Below, in pieces: positions 1,520 to 64,000 of a stretch of DNA of 64,000 nt (position 1 is the stretch's first letter; each line of letters begins with the position of its first letter). The notes under the pieces were generated by a model. It saw only the letters and a list, made by a program, of their open reading frames with translations. It did no database searches and had not been told where the DNA came from. Made by a program: the position numbers and the translations under genes. Source of the DNA: a virus (Duplodnaviria; Caudoviricetes); the IMG/VR virus record IMGVR_UViG_3300011113_000265, positions 33,018 through 97,017 of that record. One strand, written 5' to 3'.

Positions 1520-4500
1520 ATGACTCAAGAAAAAGAACAAGAACAAGGTGGTCAAACTAATGGTATTGCAATAAATACTTTTACTGGAGGTATTAACCAA
1601 GACTTAGCTAAGACTATATATAAACAAGGTAATTATTTAGATGCTTTAAATATTACTTTACTTACTGATGGTGGATTAAGTACAGCTGTTGTACAAAATA
1701 AGAAGGGAACTAAACTACAAATTCAGTTTCCTACAATTATTCCAGCTGCTACTTATGAATCTAATAGAGAATATCCTCAAGTTGTACCTGCTCAAGAAAA
1801 TATAAAAGTTATTGAAGGTTTAGCAATAACTGATAGTAGTGGAGTACAAAACTTATTCTTTATTACAAAGAGTAATACTGTAGGTAATCCTAATGATAAT
1901 GGTTATGGTCAAATATGGAGATGTAATTTTTTAGGTACTACTGATAATATATCAGGTGCTATTAATGGTTTTGAATTAACTGTTAATAATCATATGATGT
2001 ATAATAGAAATCTTAACTTTAAGTTTGTAGAAAGAATTAAAGCTATTGGTAAGTATGAGAATGAAAACTTTTGTAGAATATACTGGACTGATGGTATTAA
2101 TCCATTAAGAAGTATTAATACAATAGGTTCTTTACAATCTTTATTAAACATACCTGTAAGAACTTTAAATATAGTATCTGAATGTAATTTAGATACTCCT
2201 GTTATTAGTAGATTAATTAAAGGTAGTTTACCTGAAGGTAAATATCAATTAGCTTATAGATTATTAAGTAAAAGTGGAGATTTAACTAACTTCAGTACTT
2301 GTAGTAATTTAATAGATGTTATTGAAGGTAATGAGTTTAATAGTGAACTTGGATACCCATTAGCTGATACAATAGAGTATACTACAGATGTTATGGCTGC
2401 TACAGATAGTAAAGAAGTTATTGACTCTGATAAAGGTATTGAGTTTTATATACCTCGTATTGATAAAGATTATGAAATGATTCAATACGCTTTAGTATAT
2501 TATAGCCAACCTAATTTACCTGAAATATTTGTATATCCTTATAAAGAAATATCTTTGTATAGAAATCAATATGAAAGCTTTACTGATTTATTTAGTGATA
2601 CTTTTCTATTAACTACAGAAGAGTTTAATATAATGTATGCTCCATTTGAAAAAGTAGGTACTATTGAAGTTAAAGATAATATCTTATTTGCTGCTAATAC
2701 TACTAATGAAATGTTTAAAGTTGATGTAGATTACAGAGCTTATAGATATAATAATAATGGTGAATGTACTACTTATGAATTAGATGGAACTACAAATACT
2801 TTTACTACTAACTATCCTAATAATGATTTATTAGATGTTATTAATCCTTATAATGATGAGAGTGGTAAGATATTTGGTTTAAATAATGTAGGTAATCCTA
2901 CAACTTGGTATAATAATCATCAATATAAATATAAACAAGATGGTGTTACTTTAGGTGGTCAAGGTCCTAATATTGGTTATACTTTTGGTACAACTCAAAT
3001 TATAGTTGATAGTGGTGTTAATCCAGCATTAAAAATTAATAGAGCTCCTTTAATTAAAACTGAAGTAGATAATAATTCTACACTTATAAGTGTACCTAAT
3101 CATGTTACTAATAATAATGGTAGTTTTAGTAGTTTAAAATCTCCTTATAAAGCTAGCTGTCAAGTATCTTGGCAACGTGGAGAAGTATATAGGTTTGGTA
3201 TTACTTTTTATAATAAGAAAGGACAAGCTTCTTATGTTAACTGGATAGGTGATATTAAGATGCCTGACTTTAATGAAACTAATAATCCTGCTTGTTTACT
3301 ATCAACATTTAGTAGTAATAATGCTAAGTTAACAATGTATTCTACTTATATAGATTTTGATGTTAATGTACCTCAAGATTTAGCTGAAGAAATTAGTGGA
3401 TTTAGAATAGTATATGTTGAAAGACAAGAAAATGATAAGACTAGGTTTGGTACTGCTATTACTGGTGGTATGCAAACTTTTGATAGATTAAATATTAATG
3501 ATCAAAATATAAATTATACTATATCAATTATAGCAACTGTTATTTGTTATAAAATAGGTAATTATATAGATGAAATAGATGGTAGTGATTCTACAGATCC
3601 ATTTAATATTAAAGAAAATATTAGAGAAAAAATAATGCAAGCAGCTGCAGCAACTATTTATAAAAAAATAAATGGTATGCCTTCAGCAGCTCAACAAAGA
3701 GTAACTAGTTCTGAAGATTTAGCTGATTTAGTTGATTCTGTATTAGATGGTGCTGTTAATACTAACAATGGATTTTTTAGTTCTATATTAAGTAGTGCTG
3801 GAAATTTAATTAAATTAATATTTCCTAAAACTATTGAAAAAATTAAAGAATCTATTAAAGAAGATTTAAGAAAAGTATTAGCTTATAAAGTAGCTGGATT
3901 ACATCCTAACGTATATTCTTTAGGTCAAATAGGATTTGCTAATGCTGCAATAGCTAGTTCTTCTGGATTAGCTCATATAGGATACACAATATCTCCTAAT
4001 ATTGATTTTGGTAAATATGAATTTAAACAAGGAGATTATTTAAAACCTATTCATATATTTAATCAAGGTAATAAAGCTACATATCAATTACATAGAGATT
4101 CTACTGTAGGATTATACAATATATTAGATAGTTCTGCTTATTTAAGAAAATGGTATGGTGGTAGTAATATACCTTGGAATGAAGTAGCTGATAGTGATGC
4201 TAGAAGAATATATATTAATAATCAAAAAGTACTTATACCTGGTGAGTTATTAGGATCTGGTTTTGATAATGTAATGAATAGTCAAAATGCTGAAAGTGTA
4301 GATTTAGATTTTTTAATATCTAATAGTTATGTATCTTCAATACCTCAAGCTAATAAAAGAGGGGAAATTGTTAGTGCAATTAATATGATGATTAACGATG
4401 TTACTTTAGCTGTTAAACAAGGTATTATGAATGCTGGAGGAACTTATTATTTTACTGCTGCTGAATCTTTTTTAAAAAAGATAGTAAGACCTCACACTGT

Positions 4501-9147: not shown

Positions 9148-11064
9148 ATGAGATTTTATCAATCAAGTACACCTCAATACGTATCACAATTTACACCGTT
9201 GCCATTAGATTTTATGGCTCAACAAATTAAAGCTAGAGAAGCTGCTGATGCTACAGCTGAAGATTTTATAAATAAAGTTGATGAATTAAAACTAAAACCT
9301 GGTAATCACACTGATCCTCTTGTAGTAGATAAGTATAATGAATGGTTAGATAGTAATAAAAATACTATTGCTCAAAAGTTTCATGCTGGTGAAATTGATT
9401 CTAATGAAGCAACAAGAGCTCTTAGTAAATTACAAAGTGCTTATCAAAATGATCCTGTAATTAGAAATATTAAAACAGATGCTGCTTTATCAGCAGCTAC
9501 TAATACTGCTATTGCACAAGGTAAATATAAAAGAGGTATTAGTAGTAGAGGTAGTCTTTTAGGAGATATGCCTCAATTTCAATATATAGATCCAAGAAAT
9601 GCAAGTGAAGCTGATTATGCTCAAGCACATAATTATATAACTCCTACTAGTATTAAAAGTGATCAAAACTTTGGACCTCAATATAAAGAAATTGAAGCAC
9701 GAGTTACTAATACTCTTAATTCTTTAGAACCTACAAAGCAAATTATAAATGGAATAACATATTATAAACAAGGAAATAGTTTAGTAGAGAAAAAACAATT
9801 AACAAGAGATATGGTTAAATCTATGGCTATGGATTTAGCTAATACTGAAATAAATGATCAGATTACTCCTTGGACACAATATAAAACTAGATTAAAACAA
9901 CAAGAAGGACAAGATTATACTGCAGATGAATTAGCTGAAGATATTACTGATAATTATTTTGGTTATGTAAATTCAAAAAGCACTAAAAATCAATATCAAT
10001 GGGATGCTGCACAAACTTCTGAAGGTAATAAAAAAGATGGTAAAGGTAGAATAGCTCGTAGAGCAGCTGTAATGCCTGAAAAAAATGTTGGATTTAAAGC
10101 AACTGATTTTTATAAAACATCAAATAATTTAAATCCTTCTGAAAATTTTGATAAAAATATGTTTACTTCTAAAAATAATACATTAAGTCCTGGTGAAGAT
10201 TTTGATAAAAATATGTTTAATAGTAAAAAACCTGGTTTAATAGGCTATCAAATATATGAATTATCTACAAATATGCAAAATGTAGTAAAAGAATATGTTA
10301 AAGATAAACCTAAATGGAAAAAAGTATTTGAAAATCCAAATAAAAAATATTCTGGTTTAGAAGAATTATATAAAGAAATAGAAAAGTCAGGTATATTAAA
10401 ATTATATGAAGAAGGACAAATAAAATCACAATCTAATTTAAGAACTATTTTACCTGGTACAACAGATGAATTTGGAAATAATGATTGGTCACAAATATTT
10501 GGATCTAATACTTCTCCTACATTAGAAAATATGAATGGTACAATATTAGGAGGAACTAAACAATGGATTAATACTAAAACTGGTGAAATAACTACTATAT
10601 CAGAATTAATGAATTTAAATGAAGGAGATGCTGCTAAAACACCAATATCAGCTATTGGTGAATATCAAGCTGATAATAGTATGAATATATTTTTACCTGA
10701 TAATTTACAAGGAAATTATGGACTTAAACCTTTAAGTATAAATATTGGAGGTGATGAATATATAACAACATCTGTATTTAATCCTGATCCTGAAGATTTT
10801 AGTATAAGAGATATTCATAATGTTATATATGAACAAAATAGTACAAATCTTAAAAAAGGAACACCAATTAATATTTCAATAAATACAGATAATGGTCTTG
10901 CAACATTACCAGTTAGAATAAAATATAATAAAACTAATAAAACATATAAACTTTTAAATACTGATGGTAATCCAGCAACAGGTGTTAATGGTAAACCTTT
11001 AGAATATTCTAGTGCTATTGATTTATATACTGATTTGTTAAATCAATTTTATAATCAACAATAA
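9148..11064 (+). CDS. Virion cargo/ejection protein
   Basis: 638 aa; N-terminal YVSQFTPLPLDFM motif as in crAss-like cargo proteins; synteny. Confidence 0.55.
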   Translation: MRFYQSSTPQYVSQFTPLPLDFMAQQIKAREAADATAEDFINKVDELKLKPGNHTDPLVVDKYNEWLDSNKNTIAQKFHAGEIDSNEATRALSKLQSAYQNDPVIRNIKTDAALSAATNTAIAQGKYKRGISSRGSLLGDMPQFQYIDPRNASEADYAQAHNYITPTSIKSDQNFGPQYKEIEARVTNTLNSLEPTKQIINGITYYKQGNSLVEKKQLTRDMVKSMAMDLANTEINDQITPWTQYKTRLKQQEGQDYTADELAEDITDNYFGYVNSKSTKNQYQWDAAQTSEGNKKDGKGRIARRAAVMPEKNVGFKATDFYKTSNNLNPSENFDKNMFTSKNNTLSPGEDFDKNMFNSKKPGLIGYQIYELSTNMQNVVKEYVKDKPKWKKVFENPNKKYSGLEELYKEIEKSGILKLYEEGQIKSQSNLRTILPGTTDEFGNNDWSQIFGSNTSPTLENMNGTILGGTKQWINTKTGEITTISELMNLNEGDAAKTPISAIGEYQADNSMNIFLPDNLQGNYGLKPLSINIGGDEYITTSVFNPDPEDFSIRDIHNVIYEQNSTNLKKGTPINISINTDNGLATLPVRIKYNKTNKTYKLLNTDGNPATGVNGKPLEYSSAIDLYTDLLNQFYNQQ

Positions 11065-27538: not shown

Positions 27539-30500
27539 GTTGTTCAATAGATCCAGATAAAATAACAGTTGGTGAAGTTAGAGATCTTGTTAGGCGTAAA
27601 GAATTTAGTGAATTTAAACCTAATAAAGATGATGCTGCTTCTGATGTTATTAAAAAAATACAAGCTTTACAAAATAAAGTAACTACTGAATTAGTAGATA
27701 ATACACAGCTAGTTAAAGGATATCATTTAGATCCTAGTGGTAAGACTATGCGTTATGTATGGTTAGATACTAAAGAACTAGCTTTTAGTGGTAGGGTAAC
27801 TGATATTAATAAAGCTAAATTTGTTAAAAGAAAAGGTGTTAAAGCTGCTGAAGAATTATCTAGTTTACCTGATAATATTATAAAACGTGATGCTGGTACT
27901 AAAGTACATAAAGCATTAGAAAAACTTGCTTTTTGGTTTATTAAAAATGATAAGTCTGGTTTAGTTGCTAATGATTTATCTAAAATACCTGATGTTGATG
28001 AAGATCAAATAAAAAATGAATTAGGTGTTTCAGATGGAGTTTTTTTAAATTTAAAAGAAGCATTTTCTGAAATATGGAGTACTGTTAAAAGTACACAAAA
28101 ACAAATTGACCCTAATGGAAAGTTTTGGATAAATCCTGAAACTTTTATGTTAGATTTTACAACATTTGATAAAGGTGGTACTGCAGATTTACTTATAGTT
28201 TACTCAGATAAAAGTGGTGGTTTATTTGATTATAAAACCATGAGTCCTTTAACAGATGAGAATTATAAAATTAAAGATCCTAATTGGATTGCTGATTATA
28301 AAATAGATGAGTTTAATACTCAAATATCTACTTTAATAGATATGTATAAAAAAATAGGTATTACTAAATTTAGACATGCTAGAATTGTACCTATTCAAAT
28401 TAGTTTAGCTCCTAAAGCTAAAACTGATACTACTAAAGCAGAAGGTGCTAAATTAACTGATAAATTTGTTACTGTTAAAATGGGTGAAAAGTTTGATGAA
28501 TATCTAACTCAAATACCTATTATAGTAGAAGAAACTGGTAATGAATCTTTAGATAGAGCTATTAAAGAAGCAATTACTCTTAAAAATAATCTTAATAAAA
28601 GATTAAAAAAATATAAAGAGGATAGTGCTGAGTATAATAAATTAGTATTTAGAATTAAAAAACTAAATAAAAGTATTAATGAAATTATGCTTAATAAAGA
28701 TATTAACTTTATGTTTAAACAATATAGAGAACTTGTTAATAGATATATGAAGGGTAATTCTTTAATGGTAGAAACAAGAGATCCTAATAATTCTTTATTT
28801 TTAAATAATCAAAAGATTAAAGATTTACTTGATGATTTAAGTATATTTGAAGCTATTGCTAGTTCTACTCCTGACTTTATTGATTCACTTGAATTAGGTG
28901 ATTTTACTCCTGAATCATATTTAAATGCTTTAAATGAAATACTAGGTAAAACAACTTTTTTAAAAAATAGTTTAGAGCAAAGACTTATTGATTTAAACTT
29001 AACTACTGATGAATATCAAGCTGCTAAGAATGATAAAAGCTTAAGTTGGTTTGATAAGTTATTTAGAAGATTTAGTAATATTAATAATACTATTTTTCAA
29101 AAAGTTAAACAACTATTAGACTTAGCTAATACAAGAACTAGATTAGATATTAGAAACTTTGAGAGCCAGCTAAAAAAAATAGATCAGGCCGTACAAGCTT
29201 ACGGTAACTCTGTAGGACTTTCAGGTATGAAAGTGTATGAACTATTTGTAAATAAAAAAACAGGTAATTTACATACTAAATACCTTAGTAAATTTTATGA
29301 TGAGTTATCTGAAGCTAGAAAAGATAAAGATGATGCTTTTTTAAATAAATATCTTAAACTTCGTGAAGATGCTCAAGAAATATTTGAAAAACGCAAACTT
29401 GATTATATGTTTAAAAACTCTTTAGTAGAAAGTGATTTAGAAAAAAATGATGCTTATATTAAATGGGAATCTGAAAATAATCCATCTAAACCTAGTTCTA
29501 ACACTAAATATTCTAACTATTGGTTTACTTATTATGAAATAAATGAAGATGCTATTCCTAATGAATATTTTAATCCTGATTTCATAAAGATTAAAAGCAA
29601 TCAAGCTTTATTAGATTATTATAATTTTTGGACAGATAGTATGGAAACCTTTAGAGAGTATCTTGATCTTAGTGGTGATAAAATACCTAGAAATTTTATA
29701 CCTTGGATTAAAGCTAATACTGTAGAACAGTTTATGAATAATGGGATTAATATATCTTTAGATAGTTTTAAAAACATTATGAGTATTCAAGAAAATAATG
29801 AACTTGTGTTTAGAGAAGGTTATATTGAATTAAAAAGTGAAATAGATCCTGACACTGGTTTACCTAAAAGAGAAATACCTAGATACTTTATTAATCCTTT
29901 AATTAATCAACAAGGAGAAATAGATAGTAGTTTAAAATCTTTTGATTTATCTTCAAGTTTAATGATATTTGCTGGTATGGCTTATAATTATAACAATCTT
30001 AAAGAACATGAAAATACTATTGAAGCTCTTAAAGAAGTTCTTGCTAAATTAGGTGTAGTACAAACTACTGCTGAAGGTAAAACATTACCTAATTCTGAAA
30101 TTGGTAAAAGATCTGCTGAATTTAAATTATTAGAAGATCTTATTAATTCTCAATTATATGGAGCTTATTATAAAGAAAAACCTAGTAAAGCAACACAAGG
30201 TCTTCAAAAATTAAGATCTTATCAACAACTTACTACATTAGCTTTAGATCCTATATCATCAACAGTTAACTTAATGGGTGCTAGAACTAATGCTTTGTTT
30301 CAAGGTGTTAAAGGTTATTTTTATACTAGAGCAATGTATAATAAAGCATTAGATAATAGATTTAGAGATACTGAAAGATATAAAGCTTTAGCACATTTTT
30401 TTCAACCATATGCTAATAAACGTGTAGATGAAATAGCAAAAGAATTTAAAGGTAATAAGATTGCTAAAAAATTTAGTTATGATAACTTATTTGTTGGTTT

Positions 30501-32409: not shown

Positions 32410-33052
32410 AATCTAATATCTTACCTACTAGATCAGATCTGTGATTTTCTTTAAGTTTAATCCACTTAATTCCATCTATTGACTTAGACAGTTCAATAGC
32501 ATAAGAAAGTCCGTTAAACTCATCCTTTATGTCTTTCTGCTCATTATCACCATTAATAATTATCTTACCAGTTTTTCCTAATCTTGTAAGTACAGCTAAC
32601 ATTTCAGCTTTAGTAGTGTTTTGACTTTCTTCTACAATTAATATATCATCAATAGTTTTACCTCTAATAAACTGAATAGGTAAAGCTTTAATCTTTTCAC
32701 TTTTTAACAGAGTATCAATTTCTTCTTTATTAGTACAACATTTATTAAGGTTATCTAAGAAAGCTTCCATATAAGGATCAAACTTTTCATTTAACTCACC
32801 AGGTAAAAAACCTAATGATTTACCTACTTCAATAGCTGCTCTTGTATTCCAAATGCAATCTACTTGTTTCTTTTTTAAGAAGTCTAGTGCTGTTTGAGCA
32901 CAGACCAGGGATTTACCTGATCCTGCTCTACCAGTCACTATAACTATTTGATTGTCTATTATTAATTGTTTAGCTTTCTTTTGTTCTTCATTTAACTGAA
33001 TAGCATTGATAGCTTTAATTTCATTTTTTCTTGGTCTATTTGGTGTTTTCAT
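32390..33052 (-). CDS. phoH: PhoH-family ATPase
   Basis: GRAGSGKS, LGFLPG, FIRGKT, EESQN, LTRLG, GDNEQKD, HRS. Confidence 0.93.
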   Translation of the reverse strand: MKTPNRPRKNEIKAINAIQLNEEQKKAKQLIIDNQIVIVTGRAGSGKSLVCAQTALDFLKKKQVDCIWNTRAAIEVGKSLGFLPGELNEKFDPYMEAFLDNLNKCCTNKEEIDTLLKSEKIKALPIQFIRGKTIDDILIVEESQNTTKAEMLAVLTRLGKTGKIIINGDNEQKDIKDEFNGLSYAIELSKSIDGIKWIKLKENHRSDLVGKILDYEYNGK

Positions 33053-51895: not shown

Positions 51896-52343
51896 TTAAA
51901 AGTTTAACAAATTTAATTTTTTATTAGTTTTTTTATTGCTTTTAGACAATAGATACTGAATCAACGTATTACTAAAGTCATCAAAAGTCATTCTTTCAGG
52001 ATGATATTGCACACCTATAATATTTAATTCATTATGCATAAAAGCTTCTACAATGTAATGATTACCTTCAGTAAAAGTATATTCTACATCTTTGTTTACA
52101 AGTAAAGGAGTTAAATCAGGATTTTTAGATAAGCTTTCTAGAGTAACACCTTGATGATGATAACTATTAACTTTATATACATTTTTAAATGTAGTACCAT
52201 TAAATTCTTGATATATTTTGTTAACTGCAATAGAATTAACTTTACAAGTATTTACATCTTCTTTATCACTACTACCACTATAACCATGGTAAGCACTAAC
52301 ATTTTGAATTAAAGGTACACCAAAATGTATTGCAAGTTGTTGC
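51896..52343 (-). CDS. Exon 2 of class I glutamine amidotransferase (peptidase C26 / PuuD-like); absent from the ORF track
   Basis: Reads (M)QQLAIHFGVPL...VNSYHHQGV...GVQYHPER...LLNF*; completes the Cys-His-Glu triad. Confidence 0.88.
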
Positions 52344-52623
52344 CAACTCTGTTATCTTACAGGTTCTTTATCCTGTAATTCTATATGTTTCCATATAGTT
52401 CAGACTATATCATCACCAATAATTATAAACTATTGGGCAGGGCGCTCGTGTCAACATTACTGTCCTCAACTTTACTTGGTAGGACTCGGTTGTTAGTCGT
52501 TGAACCTTCGAGGGTATTACTACCCAAGCTTGGCTGCTGATTAGCATAGGATTTCTCCCTTAGCATTCCAGACAATTCACCCCGTTTTTAACTATAAATC
52601 ACTTTATAGTGGCACACAAATCT
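52344..52623 (-). mobile_element. Group I intron (280 nt, no ORF) in the class I GATase gene
   Basis: 5' exon ends in U, intron ends in G; exon UGGCAU pairs with intron GUGCCA (P1); AAUCAGCAG, GUUCAACGACUA and GAUAUAGUC core elements; splicing gives GICLGMQ. Confidence 0.92.
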
Positions 52624-56087: not shown

Positions 56088-57048
56088 TTAAAATAAACTT
56101 AATTGTGTATTAATTATTGTATCTATTTCTTTCTGAGCTTCTCTAATATAAAATTGATAGTTTATATCATATTCATGCATTTGTTTGTTTATAAAATTAT
56201 TAAATATAGTTACTTGATAATCTTTATTAATAACTTCACTAGTGCCTTTAGAATAGTATTTTATAAAGTTTGCTCCTTTATTAGATATATAATATCTAAC
56301 ATTCTTTTGTTGCTTTTCAACTAATTCTACAGCCATACCATCTTTATAACCTAAATAATGTATTTGACCATAACTATCTCTACCAAATTTCTGTCTACCA
56401 CAAAAATCATATATATTAGTATGATTCATAATAGTATTTCTGATAGGTATATTATTTACAAAGAATTGACTTAAAGCATAAGGTATAATTCTAAAACTAT
56501 TATCTTTATGATAAGCAGGTTCAGAACCAACTACTTTATCTACTTCAAATGCACCTTTATATTTAACTTTACCTTGAGTAGTTACAGCCAAATAATTATT
56601 TACATCTCTAATTACCATCTTAGAATACTCTACATATTCTAATTGTAGTTTAGTTTGTTGTTCCCAATTCTTACAAATGTTGTAGTATGCATTAATACTG
56701 TGTTGATTATTAGGTATTTTGAGAGTAATACCATCAGTATTAATTTGCAATACAGTCATATTTTTAATTCTATCAACTAATTCTTCAGCTAACATAGTTA
56801 GTAATAGTTGACCATTAAGAGTAATACACATTGTAAATTTAGGATCATATAAGAAACTATTAATATCATTAGATTTACCATATACTGAATTTGCTGCAAG
56901 TTTAAATCCATCAGCTAGTACAGTATTTTTAGCTTTTTTAGCTTCTAATCTAAGTTTAATAATTTCTTTATATATATCAACAAAATCTTTACCTAAATGC
57001 TCTATATAAAAACCATTAGTAATAGAAAGGCTTGGGTATAGACTAGCA
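56088..57048 (-). CDS. polB: Family B DNA polymerase, exon 3
   Basis: Open frame (V)ASLYPS...KLAANSVYGK...QINTDGI...DVNNY...KGAFE, extending the 56088-56831 ORF upstream. Confidence 0.92.
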
Positions 57049-58039
57049 CATTTATACCCATTTAAAAAATATTCTTAGATTTCTCTAAGGATTGGACTAT
57101 ATCTTCTTTTTCAATTTTAACTTTAACCCAAATATATCCATATATTGATGGTTTTTCACCACTACATACTGCATATATATTGTGTTTTTTATAATTAGGA
57201 TTTTCATTTATTATATCAATCAATTTATCCCATATTTTAATTAAAATCATATCTTTTGTATATTGATATATTTTATATTTAGTATGTTTATGAGATACTT
57301 TTTCAGACATTTGAATTTTAATTTCAGGATTATTTTTCCAAAATTTAGAAATTTTTAATCCAACTTCTTTATTCATTTCTGGAAATTTAATATTTCTTAA
57401 CTTTCTACTTTCACTTAATTTATTTTTAGTTTCTTGTAAAACTAAACAATTTGTTGAAGTATCTTGTCTAAGATTATATCCAAAATTTCTGTCTATTGAT
57501 TTATAAACATTTATCCAATATAATTCTTTTTCTTTTAAAACAAGTTCATCAAAATATTCTAAATATTCTAATATAAAATATTCAAAATTATTTTTACCAT
57601 ATTTATGCCAAGAATTAATTAAATGTCTATTTTCATCTTTTGATTTAGTATTTAAATGAGTTATATGTTGTTTAATTCTAAAATATATATTTTTAGATTT
57701 TCCAATATAAACTTTATTATTTACTAAATTTCTGATACAATAAATTCCTATTTTTCCTAAATGTTGTTTTCTATTTAATTTCATAATAATTATATAATAT
57801 TTATATAATATATTAATTAAATTAAATTATCCAATTTTTTAGGATATTATTTTTAGTTAAAAATTGTTAAAGCCTTCCGCTTCGAGGTTATTTACCCCTA
57901 CTCTACTCCATTCACTTATTAGTGTGTTTCGATAGTCTCTGAACTTTCATTTGATTGTAAATCAAATGCTTAGCTGCTGATTGCCATATCTATTTGATTT
58001 AGGTTTCCAGCAATTCAAAAGGTTAAGACGCTGCTATCA
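57049..58039 (-). mobile_element. Group I intron 2 of polB (991 nt) carrying a GIY-YIG ORF
   Basis: P1 AGACGU/GCGUCU with U-G pair; P10 UAGCA/UGCUA; AAUCAGCAG, UUCAGAGACUA, AAGAUAUAGUCC; terminal G at 57049; splicing gives DADVASLYP. Confidence 0.93.
57062..57784 (-). CDS. Intron-encoded GIY-YIG homing endonuclease with NUMOD1-like C-terminus
   Basis: IGIYCIRNLVNNKVYIGKSKNIYFRIKQH, ELYWI...GYN, IYQYTKD...YGYIW. Confidence 0.92.
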   Translation of the reverse strand: MKLNRKQHLGKIGIYCIRNLVNNKVYIGKSKNIYFRIKQHITHLNTKSKDENRHLINSWHKYGKNNFEYFILEYLEYFDELVLKEKELYWINVYKSIDRNFGYNLRQDTSTNCLVLQETKNKLSESRKLRNIKFPEMNKEVGLKISKFWKNNPEIKIQMSEKVSHKHTKYKIYQYTKDMILIKIWDKLIDIINENPNYKKHNIYAVCSGEKPSIYGYIWVKVKIEKEDIVQSLEKSKNIF

Positions 58040-58105: not shown

Positions 58106-58429
58106 CATTTTGTTATCTTAAAGGCTTTTTATCCTTTAATTCTTATTCTTATATCATTGAATAAGTTCGGCATATATTTTCATCCCGTAAGGATGTTGGA
58201 TACTCTTGGACATATTATATTCTAAACAAAGAAGCAGGCTTTCCAACCTGCGACTTACAAATGGAATTAAACCATTACTCTTTGTTTAGTTTCAATATCT
58301 ATGCTCTACACTACTTAACTTTATTAAAGGTTAAGTTAGCACGGTATTTTCCAAGTTAATTGATAAGGAATCCACCGTTTTTACCCAATTTATTACCTTT
58401 TAGTTACCTAAAAGGAGGACACACATTTT
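58106..58429 (-). mobile_element. Group I intron 1 of polB (324 nt, no ORF)
   Basis: Exon GGGAU pairs with intron GUCCU (P1); terminal G at 58106; P7 GCAUA/UAUGC; 3' domain resembles the GATase intron; splicing gives YGTGGIHG. Confidence 0.85.
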
Positions 58430-59319
58430 ATCCCACCAGTACCATAGTCATATTTAAAACCTTTATATATTACAGATTCACTAATACTACCTTTAGTTTC
58501 TCTAATAACTTTACTTTTTAACTTATTAAGTAATTTATTAAAGTCATCAGATTTAAACTTAATATAAGGTAATATACAATCATTAAGATTAATAGAATCT
58601 CTATGAGTACGCATCTTTTTAACATCCCAAGGATTTGTTTTAGTCTTATCAGTATATAGTTTAAGAATAAGTTGTTCACCTATTCTACTATCAGACCAAT
58701 TAATACAAGGAATATCAAATTGAGTTATTAATGATTTGCGTAGCTCTATTTTAGGAAGAGAGTTAGTATAAAATCTATAAGTTGCTAATACATCGTTAAG
58801 ATTATATTCAAGTATAGGAGTAATCTCATCAAAAGAAATATCAGTTCTTTTGTGATCAATTGGCATTTCCATAACATTAGGATAATTCATACTTATCTCT
58901 AATGCTTTTAGACTTGTACTACGAGCTTTGTTGTTATAATGCCATATTTTAAATAAGTCTAATTGAGGTATTAATACTTCACGTTCTTTAATAGATACAC
59001 TTGTTACAAAGTTTTTCTGATTCTGTTCTTCAATAATACTTGTAGCTTTATTATGTATTTCTTTAATAATAAATTCTCTACTAGAATCTTTATTAATAGA
59101 TTTAAGTATAAAATGAATAACAGGATAATCAAAGTTAACATTGTTAAATCCAATATGTCCTTTACAAGATTTAAGATGCATTATAAGACTATTATAATCC
59201 CACCTATCTTTGTGAAGAACATATTGGACTATTTCTTCAGTATCAATATTAAAAGCTGTATAAGTAAAACAACTAGCTAATGTTTCTATATCATATACCC
59301 ATACACTTCTATTTTGCAT
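58430..59319 (-). CDS. polB: Family B DNA polymerase, exon 1 (3'-5' exonuclease domain); spliced product 638 aa
   Basis: VYDIET, GFNNVNFDYP, SLKALE, YNLNDVLAT, YDYGTGG. Confidence 0.9.
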
Positions 59320-60191
59320 TAAATTCTATTTAAATTATTTCTTACTTCTTCTAATGTAGTTTGATTGTAAAATTTACCATCTTCGTAAATTACTTGAAGT
59401 AAACCTCTTTGTTCTTCTTCTGGAGTACATTCTGTTTTTACAATAATTGGTTTAAGTGAACCATCTGGTGGACAACCTAAAGCTTTATATGTTTCCATAC
59501 TACCATCATAACAAACTTTACATAATCCTCTCAAAGATTTTTTAGTACCATCATCTGTTACTGGATCTTTGTAGATATTGTATGATTCAACATTATAAAC
59601 AGGATCACCACTACCCATTGATTTATAACCTTGTAAGGTTTTAACTTCAAACCAAGCACCTTTAGCAGCAAATCCTAAAGTATCACGAGTATTATATTGA
59701 TAAGTAAAACTACCTACACCTAATACAATATTAGTAGCTGCAAATCCTTTAGCTGCTAATCTCTCATAGATTTGAGCTTGTCTTTCAGGAGTAATACTAT
59801 CACCATAAATAGCACCTATATGAGGGTCTAATACTTTAAAACCTTGTTCATTAATTGTACCTCCAAAGATATCCCAAAGAAGTTCTATTACGCCTTTATA
59901 CTTAGGGTGTGGAGTTTCATTATTTTTAAAAACTAAAGTAGAATGTTCTTCTCCACAAATAATATCTACAGGATCTCCACTATCAGGTCTAATTACTAAT
60001 TTACCATCTCTAGCCATAATAGCTTCTTTATTAGCAGGTAAATATTCAGTAATAAGTTTCCATAAATCAAATGTATCTGCCACAATTGAAAGAATACCTT
60101 TAGGAAATAATTGTAACCAATCTGCAATCATCTGTTGTTCACCTAATGAACGCTTTTCTTGTTCTGTTAATTGTCTAATTCTTGTTTTCAT
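59319..60191 (-). CDS. nadV: NAMPT/Namat-like enzyme, C-terminal piece
   Basis: GILSIVADTFD, LVIRPDSGDP, IYGDSIT, GVGSFTYQYNTRDTLGFAAK, KDPVTDDGTKKS. Confidence 0.88.
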   Translation of the reverse strand: MKTRIRQLTEQEKRSLGEQQMIADWLQLFPKGILSIVADTFDLWKLITEYLPANKEAIMARDGKLVIRPDSGDPVDIICGEEHSTLVFKNNETPHPKYKGVIELLWDIFGGTINEQGFKVLDPHIGAIYGDSITPERQAQIYERLAAKGFAATNIVLGVGSFTYQYNTRDTLGFAAKGAWFEVKTLQGYKSMGSGDPVYNVESYNIYKDPVTDDGTKKSLRGLCKVCYDGSMETYKALGCPPDGSLKPIIVKTECTPEEEQRGLLQVIYEDGKFYNQTTLEEVRNNLNRI

Positions 60192-60618: not shown

Positions 60619-61269
60619 ATGAAAGAATGTATAAAATGTAAAATTACCAAAGATTTATCTTGTTTTCCTAAAGATAAAAGGTTAATTTCTGGTTATCGTC
60701 CTAAATGTCAAACTTGTTTGAATGAAGAACAAAGTATCAGAAGAAAAAATAATATTGATAGATATAAAGCTACTCGTAAATTATATTATCAAACTAACAT
60801 TGAAAAAATGAGAACTGAAAAAATAGAATATTACAAAAATCATAAAGAAGATAAAGCTTTATATGATATTCAATATAGAGAAAAGAATAAGGAAAAAATT
60901 GCTGCTTATAAAAAAGAATGGGATAAAAAGCAAATGCAAGATAGTATCATCTATAAAATTAAAAAGAATCTAAGAAGAAGAGTTCACCATGCTTTGAATG
61001 GTAAAACTAAATCTATTTCTACAATGAAATTAATAGGTTGTACACCTGAATATTTCAAAGAATATATAGAATCTTTATTTTTAGAAAATATGTCTTGGGA
61101 TAATTATGGAGAATGGCATATTGACCACATTATTCCTTGTTTTGCTTTTGATTTATCTATTCCTGAACAGCAAGAAAAATGTTTTCATTATTCTAATCAA
61201 AGACCTTTATGGAAAACAGATAATTTAAAAAGACCTAAAAGTATCGAACAGCTTCCCACTGCTGAGTAG
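60619..61269 (+). CDS. Free-standing HNH homing endonuclease, antisense to the operon
   Basis: CIKC...CQTC, WDNYGEWHIDHIIP, FHYSNQRPLWKTDN. Confidence 0.88.
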   Translation: MKECIKCKITKDLSCFPKDKRLISGYRPKCQTCLNEEQSIRRKNNIDRYKATRKLYYQTNIEKMRTEKIEYYKNHKEDKALYDIQYREKNKEKIAAYKKEWDKKQMQDSIIYKIKKNLRRRVHHALNGKTKSISTMKLIGCTPEYFKEYIESLFLENMSWDNYGEWHIDHIIPCFAFDLSIPEQQEKCFHYSNQRPLWKTDNLKRPKSIEQLPTAE

Positions 61270-62116
61270 TTTCATTAAATTGTTCTTCTACTTGTGAATA
61301 CTTTTCAGCTTCTGCAAATATTTTGGTGCAGGAGCAACTGTGTTCACTTGCATTTACAGAGTAAATAGGCATTTCATCATCCTTAACACCATAGAAATAT
61401 CTTGCTGCTGGAATAACTGGTAACGTATCAGAACCTTTAAATGATGTAGCATGACCTAAACCAATAAGATATTGACTCATTGGGTCAAGACCTCTAGCAG
61501 AAAAATCATGACACATAAAGTCAACTAGCCACTCATTTTTAGGATCAGTCTTTCTAACCCATTCTTCAGCTTGTCTACGATATAATTTAGCAATAGTAGC
61601 TGCTGTAGATGGTTTCCAAGCTAATGCTGATACTACTGTTTCAAGATATAAGGTTAACCATGCAAATCCATCAACTGTATTAATGAATGTCATATGAGGA
61701 ATATTAGGATTAGTTTCAATACCTTCAGGTAATGCTTTTACTCTAATAGGTAAATAACCTAAATCCCATAATTCTTCAAAGTGCTTACCATCATACTCCA
61801 TACCTAAGTATAAAGACATATCTTTTACAAATTGTAGAGCTTCAAATTTAAGTTGAGCATTATGTTCTTTACTAAAAGAAGATGTTTTAGACCATCTTTG
61901 CTTATTCATAAAAAAATTCTCTTCAAACTCATCATGTAACCATCTCCAAACTAATTGTTGACCAAATGATACTATTTTAGTAATTCCTTTAGGAGCATGT
62001 TTAGTACTTCTAGGTATCCATGTACCATATAATTTGGTAGTACCTGGAGCTAACATTGCTTTGTGTCCTACTTTATACCCATCAGATAGGTATAGACTGT
62101 TTATTTTAAAACTCAT
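61235..62116 (-). CDS. nadV: NAMPT/Namat-like enzyme, N-terminal piece
   Basis: SDGYKVGH, LGYLPIRVKALPEG, WLTLYLET, HDFSARG, GSDT, SVNASEHS. Confidence 0.88.
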   Translation of the reverse strand: MSFKINSLYLSDGYKVGHKAMLAPGTTKLYGTWIPRSTKHAPKGITKIVSFGQQLVWRWLHDEFEENFFMNKQRWSKTSSFSKEHNAQLKFEALQFVKDMSLYLGMEYDGKHFEELWDLGYLPIRVKALPEGIETNPNIPHMTFINTVDGFAWLTLYLETVVSALAWKPSTAATIAKLYRRQAEEWVRKTDPKNEWLVDFMCHDFSARGLDPMSQYLIGLGHATSFKGSDTLPVIPAARYFYGVKDDEMPIYSVNASEHSCSCTKIFAEAEKYSQVEEQFNETTQQWEAVRYF

Positions 62117-62117
62117 A

Positions 62118-63029
62118 TTAAAATACGTTTAATTGTTTAACTAAATAAGGATAAATATAATCTTGACCATCATTATCAGGTTTATAATCTTGATAACTAT
62201 TAGTACAATAAATACCATCAAAGTATTGACCTAATTCTTCTAATCCTTTAGAGAATATACCGTGAGTTACTATAAGATAGATTTTAGGCTTTGGGTTAAA
62301 TAATTCATATTGCATTTTAATTTCTTTAGCAATATTAATAAAAGTTGCTCCACCATCACATATATCATCAATTATAATAATATCCTTGTATAACTCATCA
62401 ATATGATCAATTGGTACTACAGTTTTAGTCAACTTACCATCAATATCTCTATCTTTACTACAAGTAATAATATCTCCTTTATAACCTATTTGTTCAGCTA
62501 ATTTATAGATTTTCTTACTTGCACCTGCATCTGGTGATACTAAAATAAATTCTTCTCCATATAATTTTAAAGGTCCTAAAAAAGTATCTAGTGCTTTTCT
62601 TACTAATTCTTCATTAGATATTTTTCTAAATCCTTTAATACAAGCTTCAAGTACATCACTATGAGGATCAATACAAGTAACTGTTTTAAAGTTTAAAGAA
62701 TTAATAATAGGACAAATAACATCACGTAGATAATTATTCCCTCCTTCTTCAAACTTTCTATCACTTCTAGCACCTATAATATATGGAACATAAAGATGAA
62801 TTTCTTCTACACCTAATTCGCGTAAAGATGCTACAGTACATACAATAAGTTCTAAATCTAACCAATTGTTTAAACGTGATTTGATTTCAATAGAATCATT
62901 AGCTTCTATATGAGAAAAGGTATCTCTATTATTAGATAAAATAACAATATTTTGTTGACCATCAGGAAACTTACTGATTTTATATTTAATATCTGACTTA
63001 TCTAAGTCTACTAAGTTTAATGTTTTCAT
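62118..63029 (-). CDS. prs: Ribose-phosphate pyrophosphokinase-like protein (candidate Adps of NARP1)
   Basis: FPDGQ, PYIIGARSDR, DPHS, SPDAGASKK, IIDDICDGGATF, VTHGIFS. Confidence 0.9.
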   Translation of the reverse strand: MKTLNLVDLDKSDIKYKISKFPDGQQNIVILSNNRDTFSHIEANDSIEIKSRLNNWLDLELIVCTVASLRELGVEEIHLYVPYIIGARSDRKFEEGGNNYLRDVICPIINSLNFKTVTCIDPHSDVLEACIKGFRKISNEELVRKALDTFLGPLKLYGEEFILVSPDAGASKKIYKLAEQIGYKGDIITCSKDRDIDGKLTKTVVPIDHIDELYKDIIIIDDICDGGATFINIAKEIKMQYELFNPKPKIYLIVTHGIFSKGLEELGQYFDGIYCTNSYQDYKPDNDGQDYIYPYLVKQLNVF

Positions 63030-63034
63030 ATTTA

Positions 63035-63247
63035 TTATGTTACAATATCTACTTTATGACTATAATCTTTTAATAAACTATCTAAACATTCAAAACAAGC
63101 TTCATTAGCATCTATTTTATTTAACCATTTAGCTCTAAATAGTTCTACATAATTCATTACAGCTTTCTTATGTTTAATAGTATTGTTAGAATTACTAATA
63201 ACATTAACTGTTTTAGTATAATCTTTTAAAAATTGAGGATTACTCAT
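63035..63247 (-). CDS. Hypothetical protein
   Basis: 70 aa ORF in operon. Confidence 0.55.
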   Translation of the reverse strand: MSNPQFLKDYTKTVNVISNSNNTIKHKKAVMNYVELFRAKWLNKIDANEACFECLDSLLKDYSHKVDIVT

Positions 63248-63530
63248 TTATTTCAGTTTTAGGTTCTTCTTTACTTAATTGTGAATATTTTTCCATAGCC
63301 TTTTGAAATACTAAAGGTCTATATACTTCATATAAAGCTTCTTTATCTGTTTTAGATAATTTAATTGTTTTATTATATACATCTTTAGCAAATTGATCTA
63401 ATTCTTCAAAAGATAGTTTTTTATATTCTTCAAGTTTACTAATATATCTGTTTGCTATTTTAGCTTGTTGAGAACTTTTAAATAATTGTTTTAAAACACG
63501 TTTTTGGTGTCTATTTTGTGATTGAGCCAT
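63240..63530 (-). CDS. Hypothetical protein
   Basis: 96 aa ORF with AT-rich leader. Confidence 0.6.
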   Translation of the reverse strand: MAQSQNRHQKRVLKQLFKSSQQAKIANRYISKLEEYKKLSFEELDQFAKDVYNKTIKLSKTDKEALYEVYRPLVFQKAMEKYSQLSKEEPKTEINE

Positions 63531-63585
63531 AGGTTATTAATTTTAATTGTTGTGTATGCGATATAATTTAGCGGGTAGCGGGTAG

Positions 63586-63813
63586 TTAGCGGCAATTTAG
63601 TAACCGCTTCCAAACCACCCTGTATGCTTCATATTCGTATTTGAGACCATCTCCACGTTGGATATAAAATTTACCATCGTGGTATCTACCTAATAATATT
63701 GTTGTAAAATCTCGTACTTTAAATAGATAAATATCGTGAGATAAAATGCCACTAACAGCACCTAAACAAGATGGCTCATTTCCGTTTTCTAATGAAGTTT
63801 TTTCTGTGTTCAT
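63586..63813 (-). CDS. Small cassette-like ORF starting inside an attC-like hairpin
   Basis: 75 aa; codons for EPSCLGAVSG overlap the hairpin arm, stop TAA lies in TGCCGCTAAC. Confidence 0.6.
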   Translation of the reverse strand: MNTEKTSLENGNEPSCLGAVSGILSHDIYLFKVRDFTTILLGRYHDGKFYIQRGDGLKYEYEAYRVVWKRLLNCR

Positions 63814-63884
63814 ACTTTTGTTCTTTTAATTAAGTTACGAGGTATTAATCAGCCACCTCGTTTAGCTGCGGCACGTTAGGCACA
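63747..63884. repeat. attC-like imperfect inverted repeat bounded by CTAAC ... GTTAG cores
   Basis: TGCCACTAAC-a-gcacctaaacaagatggct (63747-63776) ... agccacctcgtttagctgc-ggcac-GTTAGGCACA (63851-63884); inner arms match 16/19. Confidence 0.7.
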
Positions 63885-63900
63885 ATAGCACCCAACCGCA

Positions 63901-63999
63901 CTACTCTCGTTTATTAATTTTAATTGATTCGTCAGAAACTTTTTGAATACATTCTTTTAAAAATTCTAAAACTGCCTTATTTTCCTTTTCAAAATAATT
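63901..63999 (-). CDS. 3' end of an upstream cassette-like ORF (partial)
   Basis: Open frame NYFEKENKAVLEFLKECIQKVSDESIKINKRE* ending just before TGTGCCTAAC. Confidence 0.5.
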   Translation of the reverse strand, partial: NYFEKENKAVLEFLKECIQKVSDESIKINKRE

Positions 64000-64000
64000 A

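Follow-up and report, generated by a model that had tools for sequence, protein, structure and literature searches.

A probable array of integron-type recombination cassettes in a crAss-like phage and a related family of sites in Flavobacteriales

We analyzed a stretch of 64,000 nucleotides (hereafter the window) at the end of a viral contig that measures 97,017 bp and has a guanine-plus-cytosine (GC) content of 27% (IMG/VR record IMGVR_UViG_3300011113_000265, positions 33,018 to 97,017; contig G000). Matches to the Pfam families for the crAss-type tail ring and muzzle proteins identify its source as a crAss-like phage. Our in silico analysis indicates that positions 63585-63999 of the window, together with the first ~117 bases of the contig, probably form a short array of integron-type recombination cassettes. 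This array lacks an integrase and belongs to a divergent integron-like family, of which we found no description in the literature searched (most subscription journals and supplementary files lay outside this search). Read on the minus strand, each cassette would consist of a hairpin site, GTTA with its box, a payload gene, a box complementary to the first and a closing TAAC.

The site that lies completely in the window (unit B; Table 1) is built on the minus strand from TAAC, a 5-nt spacer, a 19-bp stem, a loop, the return stem, a single nucleotide and GTTA. Its inner arms are complementary at 16 of 19 positions, and the minus-strand mismatches comprise one G-G and two G.T wobbles. Folded as single-stranded DNA, the minus strand attains -19 kcal/mol (z -2.75), a value that 2 of 200 shuffles equal; the plus strand reaches -9.2 kcal/mol (z +0.38) and does not form the long hairpin. 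The far box at 63585-63594 complements TGCCACTAAC at 9 of 10 positions, compared with 7 of 10 for the partner box of the hairpin itself, and the tenth position of the better match is a G.T pair on the minus strand. A hairpin finder of our own scored unit B at 17 and detected nothing above 11 in the rest of the 97-kb genome; ten shuffles each yielded one to four matches scoring 11 or more. The GC content is 0.379 in 63555-63900 versus 0.223 in 63000-63554, with 16 CpG dinucleotides in 346 nt versus one in 555 nt. A preliminary description of the window had drawn attention to the palindrome with its boxes, 16/19 arms and 1- and 5-nt spacers, to the better fit of the far box, to a 75-aa open reading frame (ORF) that begins in the loop and stops inside a CTAAC box, to a second ORF ending just before the right-hand box (at 63901 in our coordinates) and to the abrupt rise of GC and CpG from ~63555; all of these features are present in the sequence.

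Table 1. Features of the cassette region, in window coordinates
Feature	Position	Strand	Remarks
attC-like unit B	63753-63878	-	126 nt; 99.2 bits with covariance model R1 (unit in training set); strand-specific fold; covariation in 28 distinct units
Arms of unit B	63851-63869 (5' arm); 63758-63776 (3' arm)	-	
Spacers of unit B	63870-63874 (5 nt); 63757 (1 nt)	-	
Family-invariant G.T wobble in unit B	63856 paired with 63771	-	
Loop of unit B	63777-63850	-	small local hairpin, A-rich tract, start codon ATG (63811-63813), codons 1-12 of the 75-aa ORF
Payload B start box	63747-63756		TGCCACTAAC on plus strand; GTTAGTGGCA on minus strand
Cassette A end box	63875-63884		GTTAGGCACA on plus strand; TGTGCCTAAC on minus strand; TAAC is the proposed crossover core
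Cassette B terminal box	63585-63594		GTTAGCGGCA on plus strand; TGCCGCTAAC on minus strand; contains TAA stop; array end and insertion junction
75-aa ORF	63586-63813	-	ATG in loop; TAA stop inside terminal ..CTAAC box
Conserved module after last TAAC	63547-63584	-	TACCCGC twice, then ..GCATACACAACA; common to L031 and L002
Upstream payload ORF, 3' part (cassette A)	63901-63999	-	5' end open at contig end; stop TAG at 63901-63903
16-nt exact direct repeat	63534-63549 and 63911-63926		copies 377 nt apart

All genes around the cassette region are on the minus strand. The window ends where the contig ends, and a second unit crosses this junction, occupying positions 1-117 of G000 on the minus strand (62.6 bits and E 7e-11 with the covariance model R1 introduced below), its 3' end being cut by the contig end. 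In a relative of the phage, L031, the sequence runs continuously across the ends of the G000 contig, and we therefore regard the genome as circularly permuted. Since the break falls inside the 3' arm of this second hairpin (hairpin A), sequence may be missing at the junction; L031 and other units continue differently there. An ORF of 44 aa that starts in hairpin A and is obtained by joining the contig ends was set aside as unsafe, the break lying within that arm. The preliminary description had viewed the region as the end of a phage-borne cassette array continuing beyond the window. One further unit is indeed found there and the cassette nature holds up, while the extent is smaller than envisaged, with two units and the contig broken inside one of them. 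Two units by our own model (one of them cut) in a genome without a recombinase correspond to an integrase-less attC cluster (CALIN), as judged by R1 and not by the IntegronFinder definition. In the window, neither an Rfam family at gathering scores nor a tRNA was detected, and a short-word BLAST search of the cassette region against the whole phage genome showed that its GC-rich motifs are not repeated; only the 16-nt direct repeat was found. First-order Markov simulation produced a repeat of this length in 3 of 2000 trials. The upstream payload ORF has one copy at its 3' end, and the other, which is absent from L031, immediately precedes the start of a 96-aa gene. The conserved module at 63547-63584, in which TACCCGC forms a 7-nt direct repeat, is preceded by different sequences in three sequencing runs, in the manner of a portable array-end or regulatory piece.

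Units of the same build recur in other viruses. Our finder searched for TAAC, 0-8 nt, a stem, a loop, the return stem, 0-3 nt and GTTA, with G.T pairs allowed, and retrieved 103 units in 1.19 Mb of viral loci; many of them stand in rows, and their stem sequences differ. From units collected in this way we built a covariance model (R1), as the preliminary description had proposed, which gave 101 matches at E ≤ 1e-3, distributed over 47 viral loci that total 344 kb; the matches of any given locus all lie on one strand. We count 13 in L014 and 14 in L015, with up to 14 per 6 kb. Among 28 distinct units of ~125 nt, 93.8% of the stem cells pair as compared to 56.7% after shuffling (with 0/500 shuffles as high) and 38-47% after sliding the partners against each other, a percentage that is partly circular, the units having been chosen by a stem finder. 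This circularity does not extend to the covariation, with double changes at 18 of 19 stem pairs, nor to an invariant wobble, one pair being G.U in 28/28 units. An earlier covariation test on near-identical copies of a common hairpin type was uninformative, and a scan of viral contigs with a 14-nt pattern gave mostly chance matches, which were filtered. In 102 distinct units, the G of a wobble belongs to the 5' arm and its T to the 3' arm, rarely the other way round, and this orientation defines the folding strand. Stems measure 17-23 bp, spacers are mostly 5 + 1 nt, the ends read TAAC or CAAC and GTTA or GTTG, and the outer boxes reach ~12 nt and contain another conserved G.T pair. The units thus combine AAC/GTT in inverted outer boxes with an inner stem, an unpaired spacer, a variable loop and covariation, as attC sites do. 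Their strand asymmetry is strong and stems from the G.T wobbles and the unequal spacer; no bulged bases were identified.

The boxes follow the logic of cassettes rather than that of hairpins. Of 47 non-redundant consecutive pairs of payload-flanking boxes, 21 show complementarity at 6/6 variable positions and nine more at 5/6, whereas none of 77 pairs of boxes from the same hairpin reaches 5/6 and random pairs reach 6/6 in 2.4%. Poor matches between payload boxes mostly span gaps of more than 460 nt, where one unit was probably missed. The other array-bearing phage records that we searched for recombinases differ in kind, ranging from 32 to 79 kb and from 30 to 51% GC, and one of them is crAss-like. 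The common hairpin type had no blastn match in 50,697 phage records. It is present, as one of three units, at 9475-10262 of a 40.9-kb viral record with 51% GC (G003); the occurrence of this AT-rich hairpin type in such a genome implies that cassettes cross between phages of very different composition.

Comparison of related loci indicates that hairpin and payload move together. Stretches of 318 nt (L009/L010, 99.7% identity), 305 nt (L024/L025, 99.3%) and 295 nt (L053/L117, 96.6%) are each common to two loci with unrelated flanks, and a ~284-nt cassette occurs in four loci at 86-97% identity. Each common stretch runs from TAAC through hairpin and payload to the next TAAC, and the similarity ends there. 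Past ..CTAAC, relatives of payload B continue with the terminal module seen in the window or with another hairpin. The flanks of L031 are ~93% identical to those of G000, yet L031 carries one different cassette, with a start codon of its own, where the G000 phage has at least two, and similarity resumes directly after TAAC. We also aligned contigs from public sequencing runs to the region; window stretches that they leave uncovered (63912-64000) carry no meaning. In a 127-nt contig from run X2 (depth 5.7), the downstream module and the upstream gene meet at a single GTTA, and the site is thus empty; a contig from run X4 has a nearly empty site that retains a scar of 3 nt, and one from run X3 has the same hairpin and flank with 153 other letters in place of payload B. 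In run X1, the likely source of the phage, the assembly shatters across 63547-63903 and the 63534-63587 bin has five times the neighbouring depth, as would be expected if several array variants share the 63534-63587 stretch. The start of a cassette is complementary to the box preceding its own site, and gene and site move as a unit, as in integron cassettes. The variation among related genomes that the preliminary description had anticipated, namely insertions and deletions bounded at the AAC/GTT boxes, is seen in the L031 cassette, in the empty site and in the cassettes found in unrelated contexts.

The hairpin of unit B is at the same time the beginning of a gene. Residues 1-23 of the 75-aa protein constitute a leader encoded by the loop and the 3' arm, and residues 27-72 the domain of payload B, of which residues 30-70 match phrog_31837 (E 2e-14). 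In an AlphaFold model, residues 1-16 and 18-23 have a predicted local distance difference test (pLDDT) score below 50 and residues 31-70 one of ~90 or more; on this model, residues 27-72 form a small five-stranded beta domain and the leader is disordered. Since the conserved domain starts only at residue 30 and the leader is predicted to be disordered, the leader appears as an add-on dictated by the nucleic-acid element. Searches with payload B returned nothing in Pfam, no match at E ≤ 0.001 in a Foldseek comparison with the PDB (best 0.13, among generic small beta-barrels) and no usable lead in the ESM Atlas (best 0.76). The 75-aa protein detected 29 loci in viral contigs: four hold the whole protein at 74-80% identity, and 22 match only the N-terminal 20-33 residues, that is, the part encoded by loop and 3' arm. 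The underlying ~125-nt element is conserved at the nucleotide level upstream of ~18 different downstream sequences; it reads TAAC, G, a short spacer, the 5' arm, the loop, the 3' arm, T and GTTA, and its loop contains a small hairpin of its own, then A-rich sequence and the ATG. Of the 62 units in the ~125-nt class, 43 carry a loop ATG that opens an ORF continuing for at least 30 codons past the box, so that the hairpin-supplied start first noticed in the window is a general design.

The cargo consists mostly of small proteins of 46-123 aa. Among 87 non-redundant payload ORFs from the viral loci and the Polaribacter phage P12002S, eight encode DNA methyltransferases and seven have other Pfam matches; the remaining 72 are without a Pfam match. 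BLASTP comparison of five array-bearing phages revealed nothing in common apart from the hairpin-encoded leader and methyltransferases. Such cargo would suit counter-defence and host-takeover genes.

Consistent with the preliminary description, in which no integrase was visible, recombinase profiles have no match in the phage: the tyrosine recombinase family PF00589 is missing from G000 and from five other phage records, and serine recombinase families from G000. A candidate enzyme is found in the likely hosts. The exact 3' arm occurs in four metagenome-assembled genomes, three of which are Bacteroidota (Sediminibacterium, Flavobacteriales and Flavobacterium). The canonical integron integrase model had no match above its cut-off in 401 sampled Flavobacteriales genomes or in the four metagenome-assembled genomes holding the motif. 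Five of the 401 genomes contain strong partial matches to it in frames of 374-385 aa, mostly near contig ends. Units adjoin the recombinase gene in three of these loci: at least five by our finder and eight by R1 in L182, four with chained complementary boxes in L184, and one at the contig edge in L183. These array-linked recombinases pass the model NF040815 ('site-specific tyrosine recombinase/integron integrase') with 227-245 bits at a cut-off of 220, and they have ~90 extra N-terminal residues. L182 (9977-10040) and L183 (1510-1570) have in common a conserved stretch of ~60 nt, located between their last cassette and the 3' terminus of the recombinase gene. It comprises YAAC, then GTTTGTATATAC, then a short perfect palindrome, and is a candidate attI-like site.

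The units are widespread in this order. R1 matches 60 of 151 sampled Flavobacteriales genomes, with arrays of 13 to 21 matches over 11-26 kb, as compared to two of 101 genomes of a control order, one of the two being the centre genome, which had been selected because it contains the motif. In four of the five large arrays tested, a recombinase homologue (41-43% identity) stands at the predicted array end, and the array-linked family as a whole occurs in 38 of the 151 genomes (E ≤ 1e-50). Both units and recombinase are present in 33 genomes, the recombinase without units in five, units without the recombinase in 27 and neither in 86, which corresponds to an odds ratio of 21 (p 6e-12, without phylogenetic correction). 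Among the 41 recombinase matches listed, 12 contain at least one in-frame stop, mostly TAA (for example G013:C12:227323-228345, G093:C7:64068-64883 and G131:C1:515019-515855); such genes may be decayed copies beside persisting arrays. In a Flavobacteriales metagenome-assembled contig (L155, reverse strand, ~2400-4300), a partial common hairpin, reduced to its 3' arm and leader and followed by a payload whose end reads ..GCTAAC, lies directly upstream of a 516-aa ORF. The N-terminus of this ORF resembles that of large serine recombinases, and L155 is therefore probably a temperate element.

Hosts and phages differ in coding polarity. In the host arrays, the long ORFs between units run opposite to the folding strand and the loops lack a start codon (L182, L184 and 9/9 further loci), whereas the phage cassettes have their genes on the folding strand. 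The host layout corresponds to the textbook integron arrangement, in which the top strand carries the genes and the bottom strand folds; the host integrase is either co-oriented with the cassettes or divergent. The phage cassette, with its hairpin followed by the payload, is the canonical cassette read on the bottom strand. The recombination geometry is thus the same, only the coding strand differs, and the hairpin travels with its own payload. It follows that one hairpin type becomes joined to many payloads when cassettes form and not by ordinary shuffling; the near-identical sites of large chromosomal integrons may offer a parallel. Two proposals of the preliminary description need to be adjusted accordingly. 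Its attC-like hairpin stands as to structure, but the folding strand is the coding strand, the reverse of the host cassettes. It had further suggested that recombination fuses a site-encoded leader to a variable payload: one hairpin type does precede ~18 payloads, yet ordinary shuffling would not bring about such fusions because the hairpin moves with the payload downstream of it.

A mechanism that would accommodate these observations is the following. The sites would act as folded single-stranded DNA, like integron attC sites, with the crossover in TAA|C at the 5' foot of the hairpin. A phage without a recombinase of its own would use the array-linked integrase of its host during infection. 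The inverted coding polarity in phages would place each hairpin upstream of its gene, and in the ~125-nt class the loop would supply a ribosome landing region, the start codon and a disordered leader of ~20 aa. The cargo, mainly small accessory genes and DNA methyltransferases, would point to counter-defence. We extend this only tentatively to a general picture, in which Flavobacteriales possess a widespread integron-like system with an Xer-like recombinase that lacks the IntI-specific domain and is missed by standard finders, and in which lytic phages of several unrelated kinds, some of them crAss-like, keep a mirror-image pool of cassettes with the gene on the recombining strand and the loop as translation start, borrowing the host enzyme in infection to swap counter-defence genes. 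We are less confident of the array-linked enzyme as the recombinase than of the cassettes themselves.

Several observations weigh against interpreting the region as integron-type cassettes served by this enzyme, in addition to the partial circularity of the pairing percentages. The G000 phage itself shows only one complete and one cut unit. The evidence for mobility is entirely comparative, and the empty-site contig is short and metagenomic. The same hairpin and boxes with different payloads (run X3; L012 vs L016) are unexplained by simple cassette exchange. Unlike textbook attC sites, the units have a 19-bp stem and wobbles in place of bulged bases, and their boxes fit only AAC/GTT. The array-linked recombinases fail TIGR02249 (223-236 bits at a cut-off of 265) and align to it in two stretches that leave model positions ~182-238 unmatched, which sets them apart from IntI. 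Their link to the units consists of adjacency and co-occurrence in hosts; 27 genomes hold units without them, and several of their copies are interrupted by in-frame stops. Finally, the folding strand of the phage is also the mRNA, so that a role at the RNA level may contribute.

This last point leads to the main rival explanation, that the hairpins function as RNA in the phage transcript, for instance as processing sites or as translation operators with the start codon displayed in a loop, and that homologous recombination between such regulatory repeats shuffles the cassettes, as with the promoter-early stem-loops (PeSL) of T4-type phages. The phage fold lies on the coding strand and has G.U-type wobbles, 43 of the 62 units of the ~125-nt class accommodate both the start codon and the A-rich leader in the loop, and PeSL cassettes, according to the accessible parts of their description (PMC2839356), do shuffle modules and form mini-circles. 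In hosts, however, the genes run opposite to the fold in 9/9 loci, and the strand-specific fold and the wobble are kept nevertheless, so that the conserved strand there is not an mRNA. Moreover, neighbouring units differ in stem sequence and offer little homology for recombination, common segments stop exactly at TAAC, and arrays end at a tyrosine recombinase gene. We consider this explanation unlikely; a role in RNA cannot account for the host arrays, but it may add to the function of the hairpins in phages.

Slightly less probable still is that the housekeeping Xer recombinases of the host act on the hairpins as a folded mimic of the chromosomal site, as they do with phages that integrate in single-stranded form, in place of the array-linked enzyme. 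This enzyme is itself Xer-like, scoring 173-195 bits against the XerC and XerD models, and 27 of the 60 unit-bearing genomes are without a family match at E ≤ 1e-50. The units nevertheless co-occur with the array-linked family, and the arrays end at its gene, in the predicted place, so that we regard housekeeping Xer enzymes as an improbable source of the activity. The boxes could presumably be likened to Xer-binding arms and also to IS200/IS605 targets.

The IS200/IS605 family stands behind a third explanation, which has little in its favour by our estimate: that the units are miniature transposable elements or single-strand transposon ends of this type, inserting by TAAC and moved by a Y1 (HUH) transposase. 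The insertions seen here lie 3' of a fixed tetranucleotide with which the element itself also ends, the hairpin is subterminal and strand-specific, and miniature inverted-repeat elements common to Flavobacterium genomes and viruses have been reported, as far as the accessible parts of that survey go (PMC11602168), which may have counted the present hairpins among them. A Y1 transposase (PF01797) is absent from 5/5 phage records (the host genomes beside the arrays were not searched for Y1), each cassette has a single hairpin and not one at each end, and the arrays are ordered, one-stranded and end at a tyrosine recombinase gene. Lastly, a chance imperfect palindrome in an AT-rich phage intergenic region, a notion invited by the single complete unit in the window, is refuted by a fold that stands out on one strand only (z -2.75), by 101 family members in viral loci and by their covariation.

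Compared with known systems, the cassettes in the window resemble integrons in many respects. Like attC sites, the hairpins have AAC...GTT ends, an outer stem, an asymmetric unpaired spacer, an inner stem and a variable loop; they are diverse in sequence with structure kept, and one strand folds better. As in integron arrays, there is one gene per cassette in one direction, the cassette start is complementary to the box before the site, and in hosts the array ends at a tyrosine recombinase gene. Unlike in attC sites, the boxes reach 10-12 bp, and unlike in integrons, the phage genes lie on the folding strand and may start in the loop. An IntI with its specific extra domain beside an array, as in a complete integron, was found neither in the phage nor in the sampled hosts; in the phage no integrase, attI site or cassette promoter was identified (no promoter test was made), and the module that follows the last TAAC is not shared by every phage. 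In Treponema-type integrons, the integrase is co-oriented with the cassettes. Likewise, the recombinase points to the array and the cassette genes follow co-directionally in L182-L184, G069, G013 and G113, while G131, G093 and G090 deviate from this type by a divergent layout.

The closest precedent comes from cultured phages. In the accessible parts of their report, Qi et al. (2023; PMC9892861) describe 17 CALINs in 10,705 phage genomes, among them that of Polaribacter phage P12002L, one of three phages they tested, with two sites of divergent direction and two methyltransferases. IntI1 recombined one of these two sites, and did so with the bottom strand alone. In the sister phage P12002S, a homologue of payload B is surrounded by the present system; the annotated start codon lies in the loop of a unit, the boxes are CAAC/GTTG and TAAC/GTTA, and one box pair is complementary at 14/14 positions. 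The arrays described here share with those CALINs the lack of an integrase, the occurrence in lytic phages and the DNA methyltransferase cargo. They differ from what is accessible of that report (PMC9892861) in having up to 14 units, in their presence in several kinds of uncultivated phage, in the loop-encoded start and the inverted polarity, and in a candidate recombinase from the host.

As with the attG insertions at which IntI acts on non-att sites, in so far as the accessible portion of a preprint describes them (Loot et al., 2023), phage arrays end at different, unrelated flanks after the last TAAC, which insertion at secondary sites would predict; the enzyme differs. With the PeSL cassettes of T4-type phages, the phage arrays share a location in a variable part of a lytic phage genome, small accessory genes with flanking stem-loops and a gene content that differs between close relatives. 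As far as the accessible text goes (PMC2839356), PeSL have conserved sequences and sigma-70-type promoters and recombine by homology; here the stems differ, a repeat search of the genome gave no further copies (no promoter scan was made), the boundaries lie at a fixed tetranucleotide and a host recombinase is implicated. In the accessible parts of the respective texts, the IntegronFinder 2.0 survey preprint lists a single complete integron within Bacteroidetes proper, that of Salinibacter ruber, and a review places Bacteroidota among the phyla with integrons. Integron cassettes are familiar from bacteria, whereas reports of their sites in virulent phages are recent and sparse. Standard surveys seem to miss the present family. 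Its kind is already known; what we did not find in print are its scale in uncultivated phages, the invariant wobble, a start codon encoded by the loop, the inversion of polarity and a platform that is widespread in Flavobacteriales and uses a non-IntI recombinase.

Elsewhere in the contig, several genes are split. The DNA polymerase gene lies in two pieces on the minus strand (58411-59319, corresponding to phrog_1252 positions 50-334, and 56091-56831, positions 429-652) with a GIY-YIG endonuclease ORF at 57065-57784 between them, which indicates either a split gene or an intron with a homing endonuclease. Likewise on the minus strand, a nicotinate/nicotinamide phosphoribosyltransferase gene is divided into 61238-62116 and 59322-60191, and the intervening DNA includes sequence similar to HNH endonuclease genes of Flavobacterium phages. 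Between the halves of a Peptidase_C26-type glutamine amidotransferase gene, ~260 nt (52340-52600, minus strand) are GC-rich (up to 0.49) and ORF-less; this stretch is possibly a self-splicing intron, with no Rfam match at gathering scores. Outside the window, the block of structural genes contains one more GC-rich island, with values of up to 0.49 (G000 28364-29042).

In practical terms, hairpins of this type break assemblies, and their leaders mimic conserved N-termini in annotation. A recombination site that doubles as a translation start is not described for attC loops in the literature searched. Should the general picture be true, the occurrence of one hairpin type in frame with many unrelated payloads would be a trace of cassette making, which for integrons is still an open question. 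A single gene-shuffling system seems to serve both phages and their likely hosts, and a cultured Polaribacter phage-host pair makes it testable; if the host enzyme acts on phage DNA, this system would allow unrelated phages to exchange small accessory genes, including methyltransferases, without homology.

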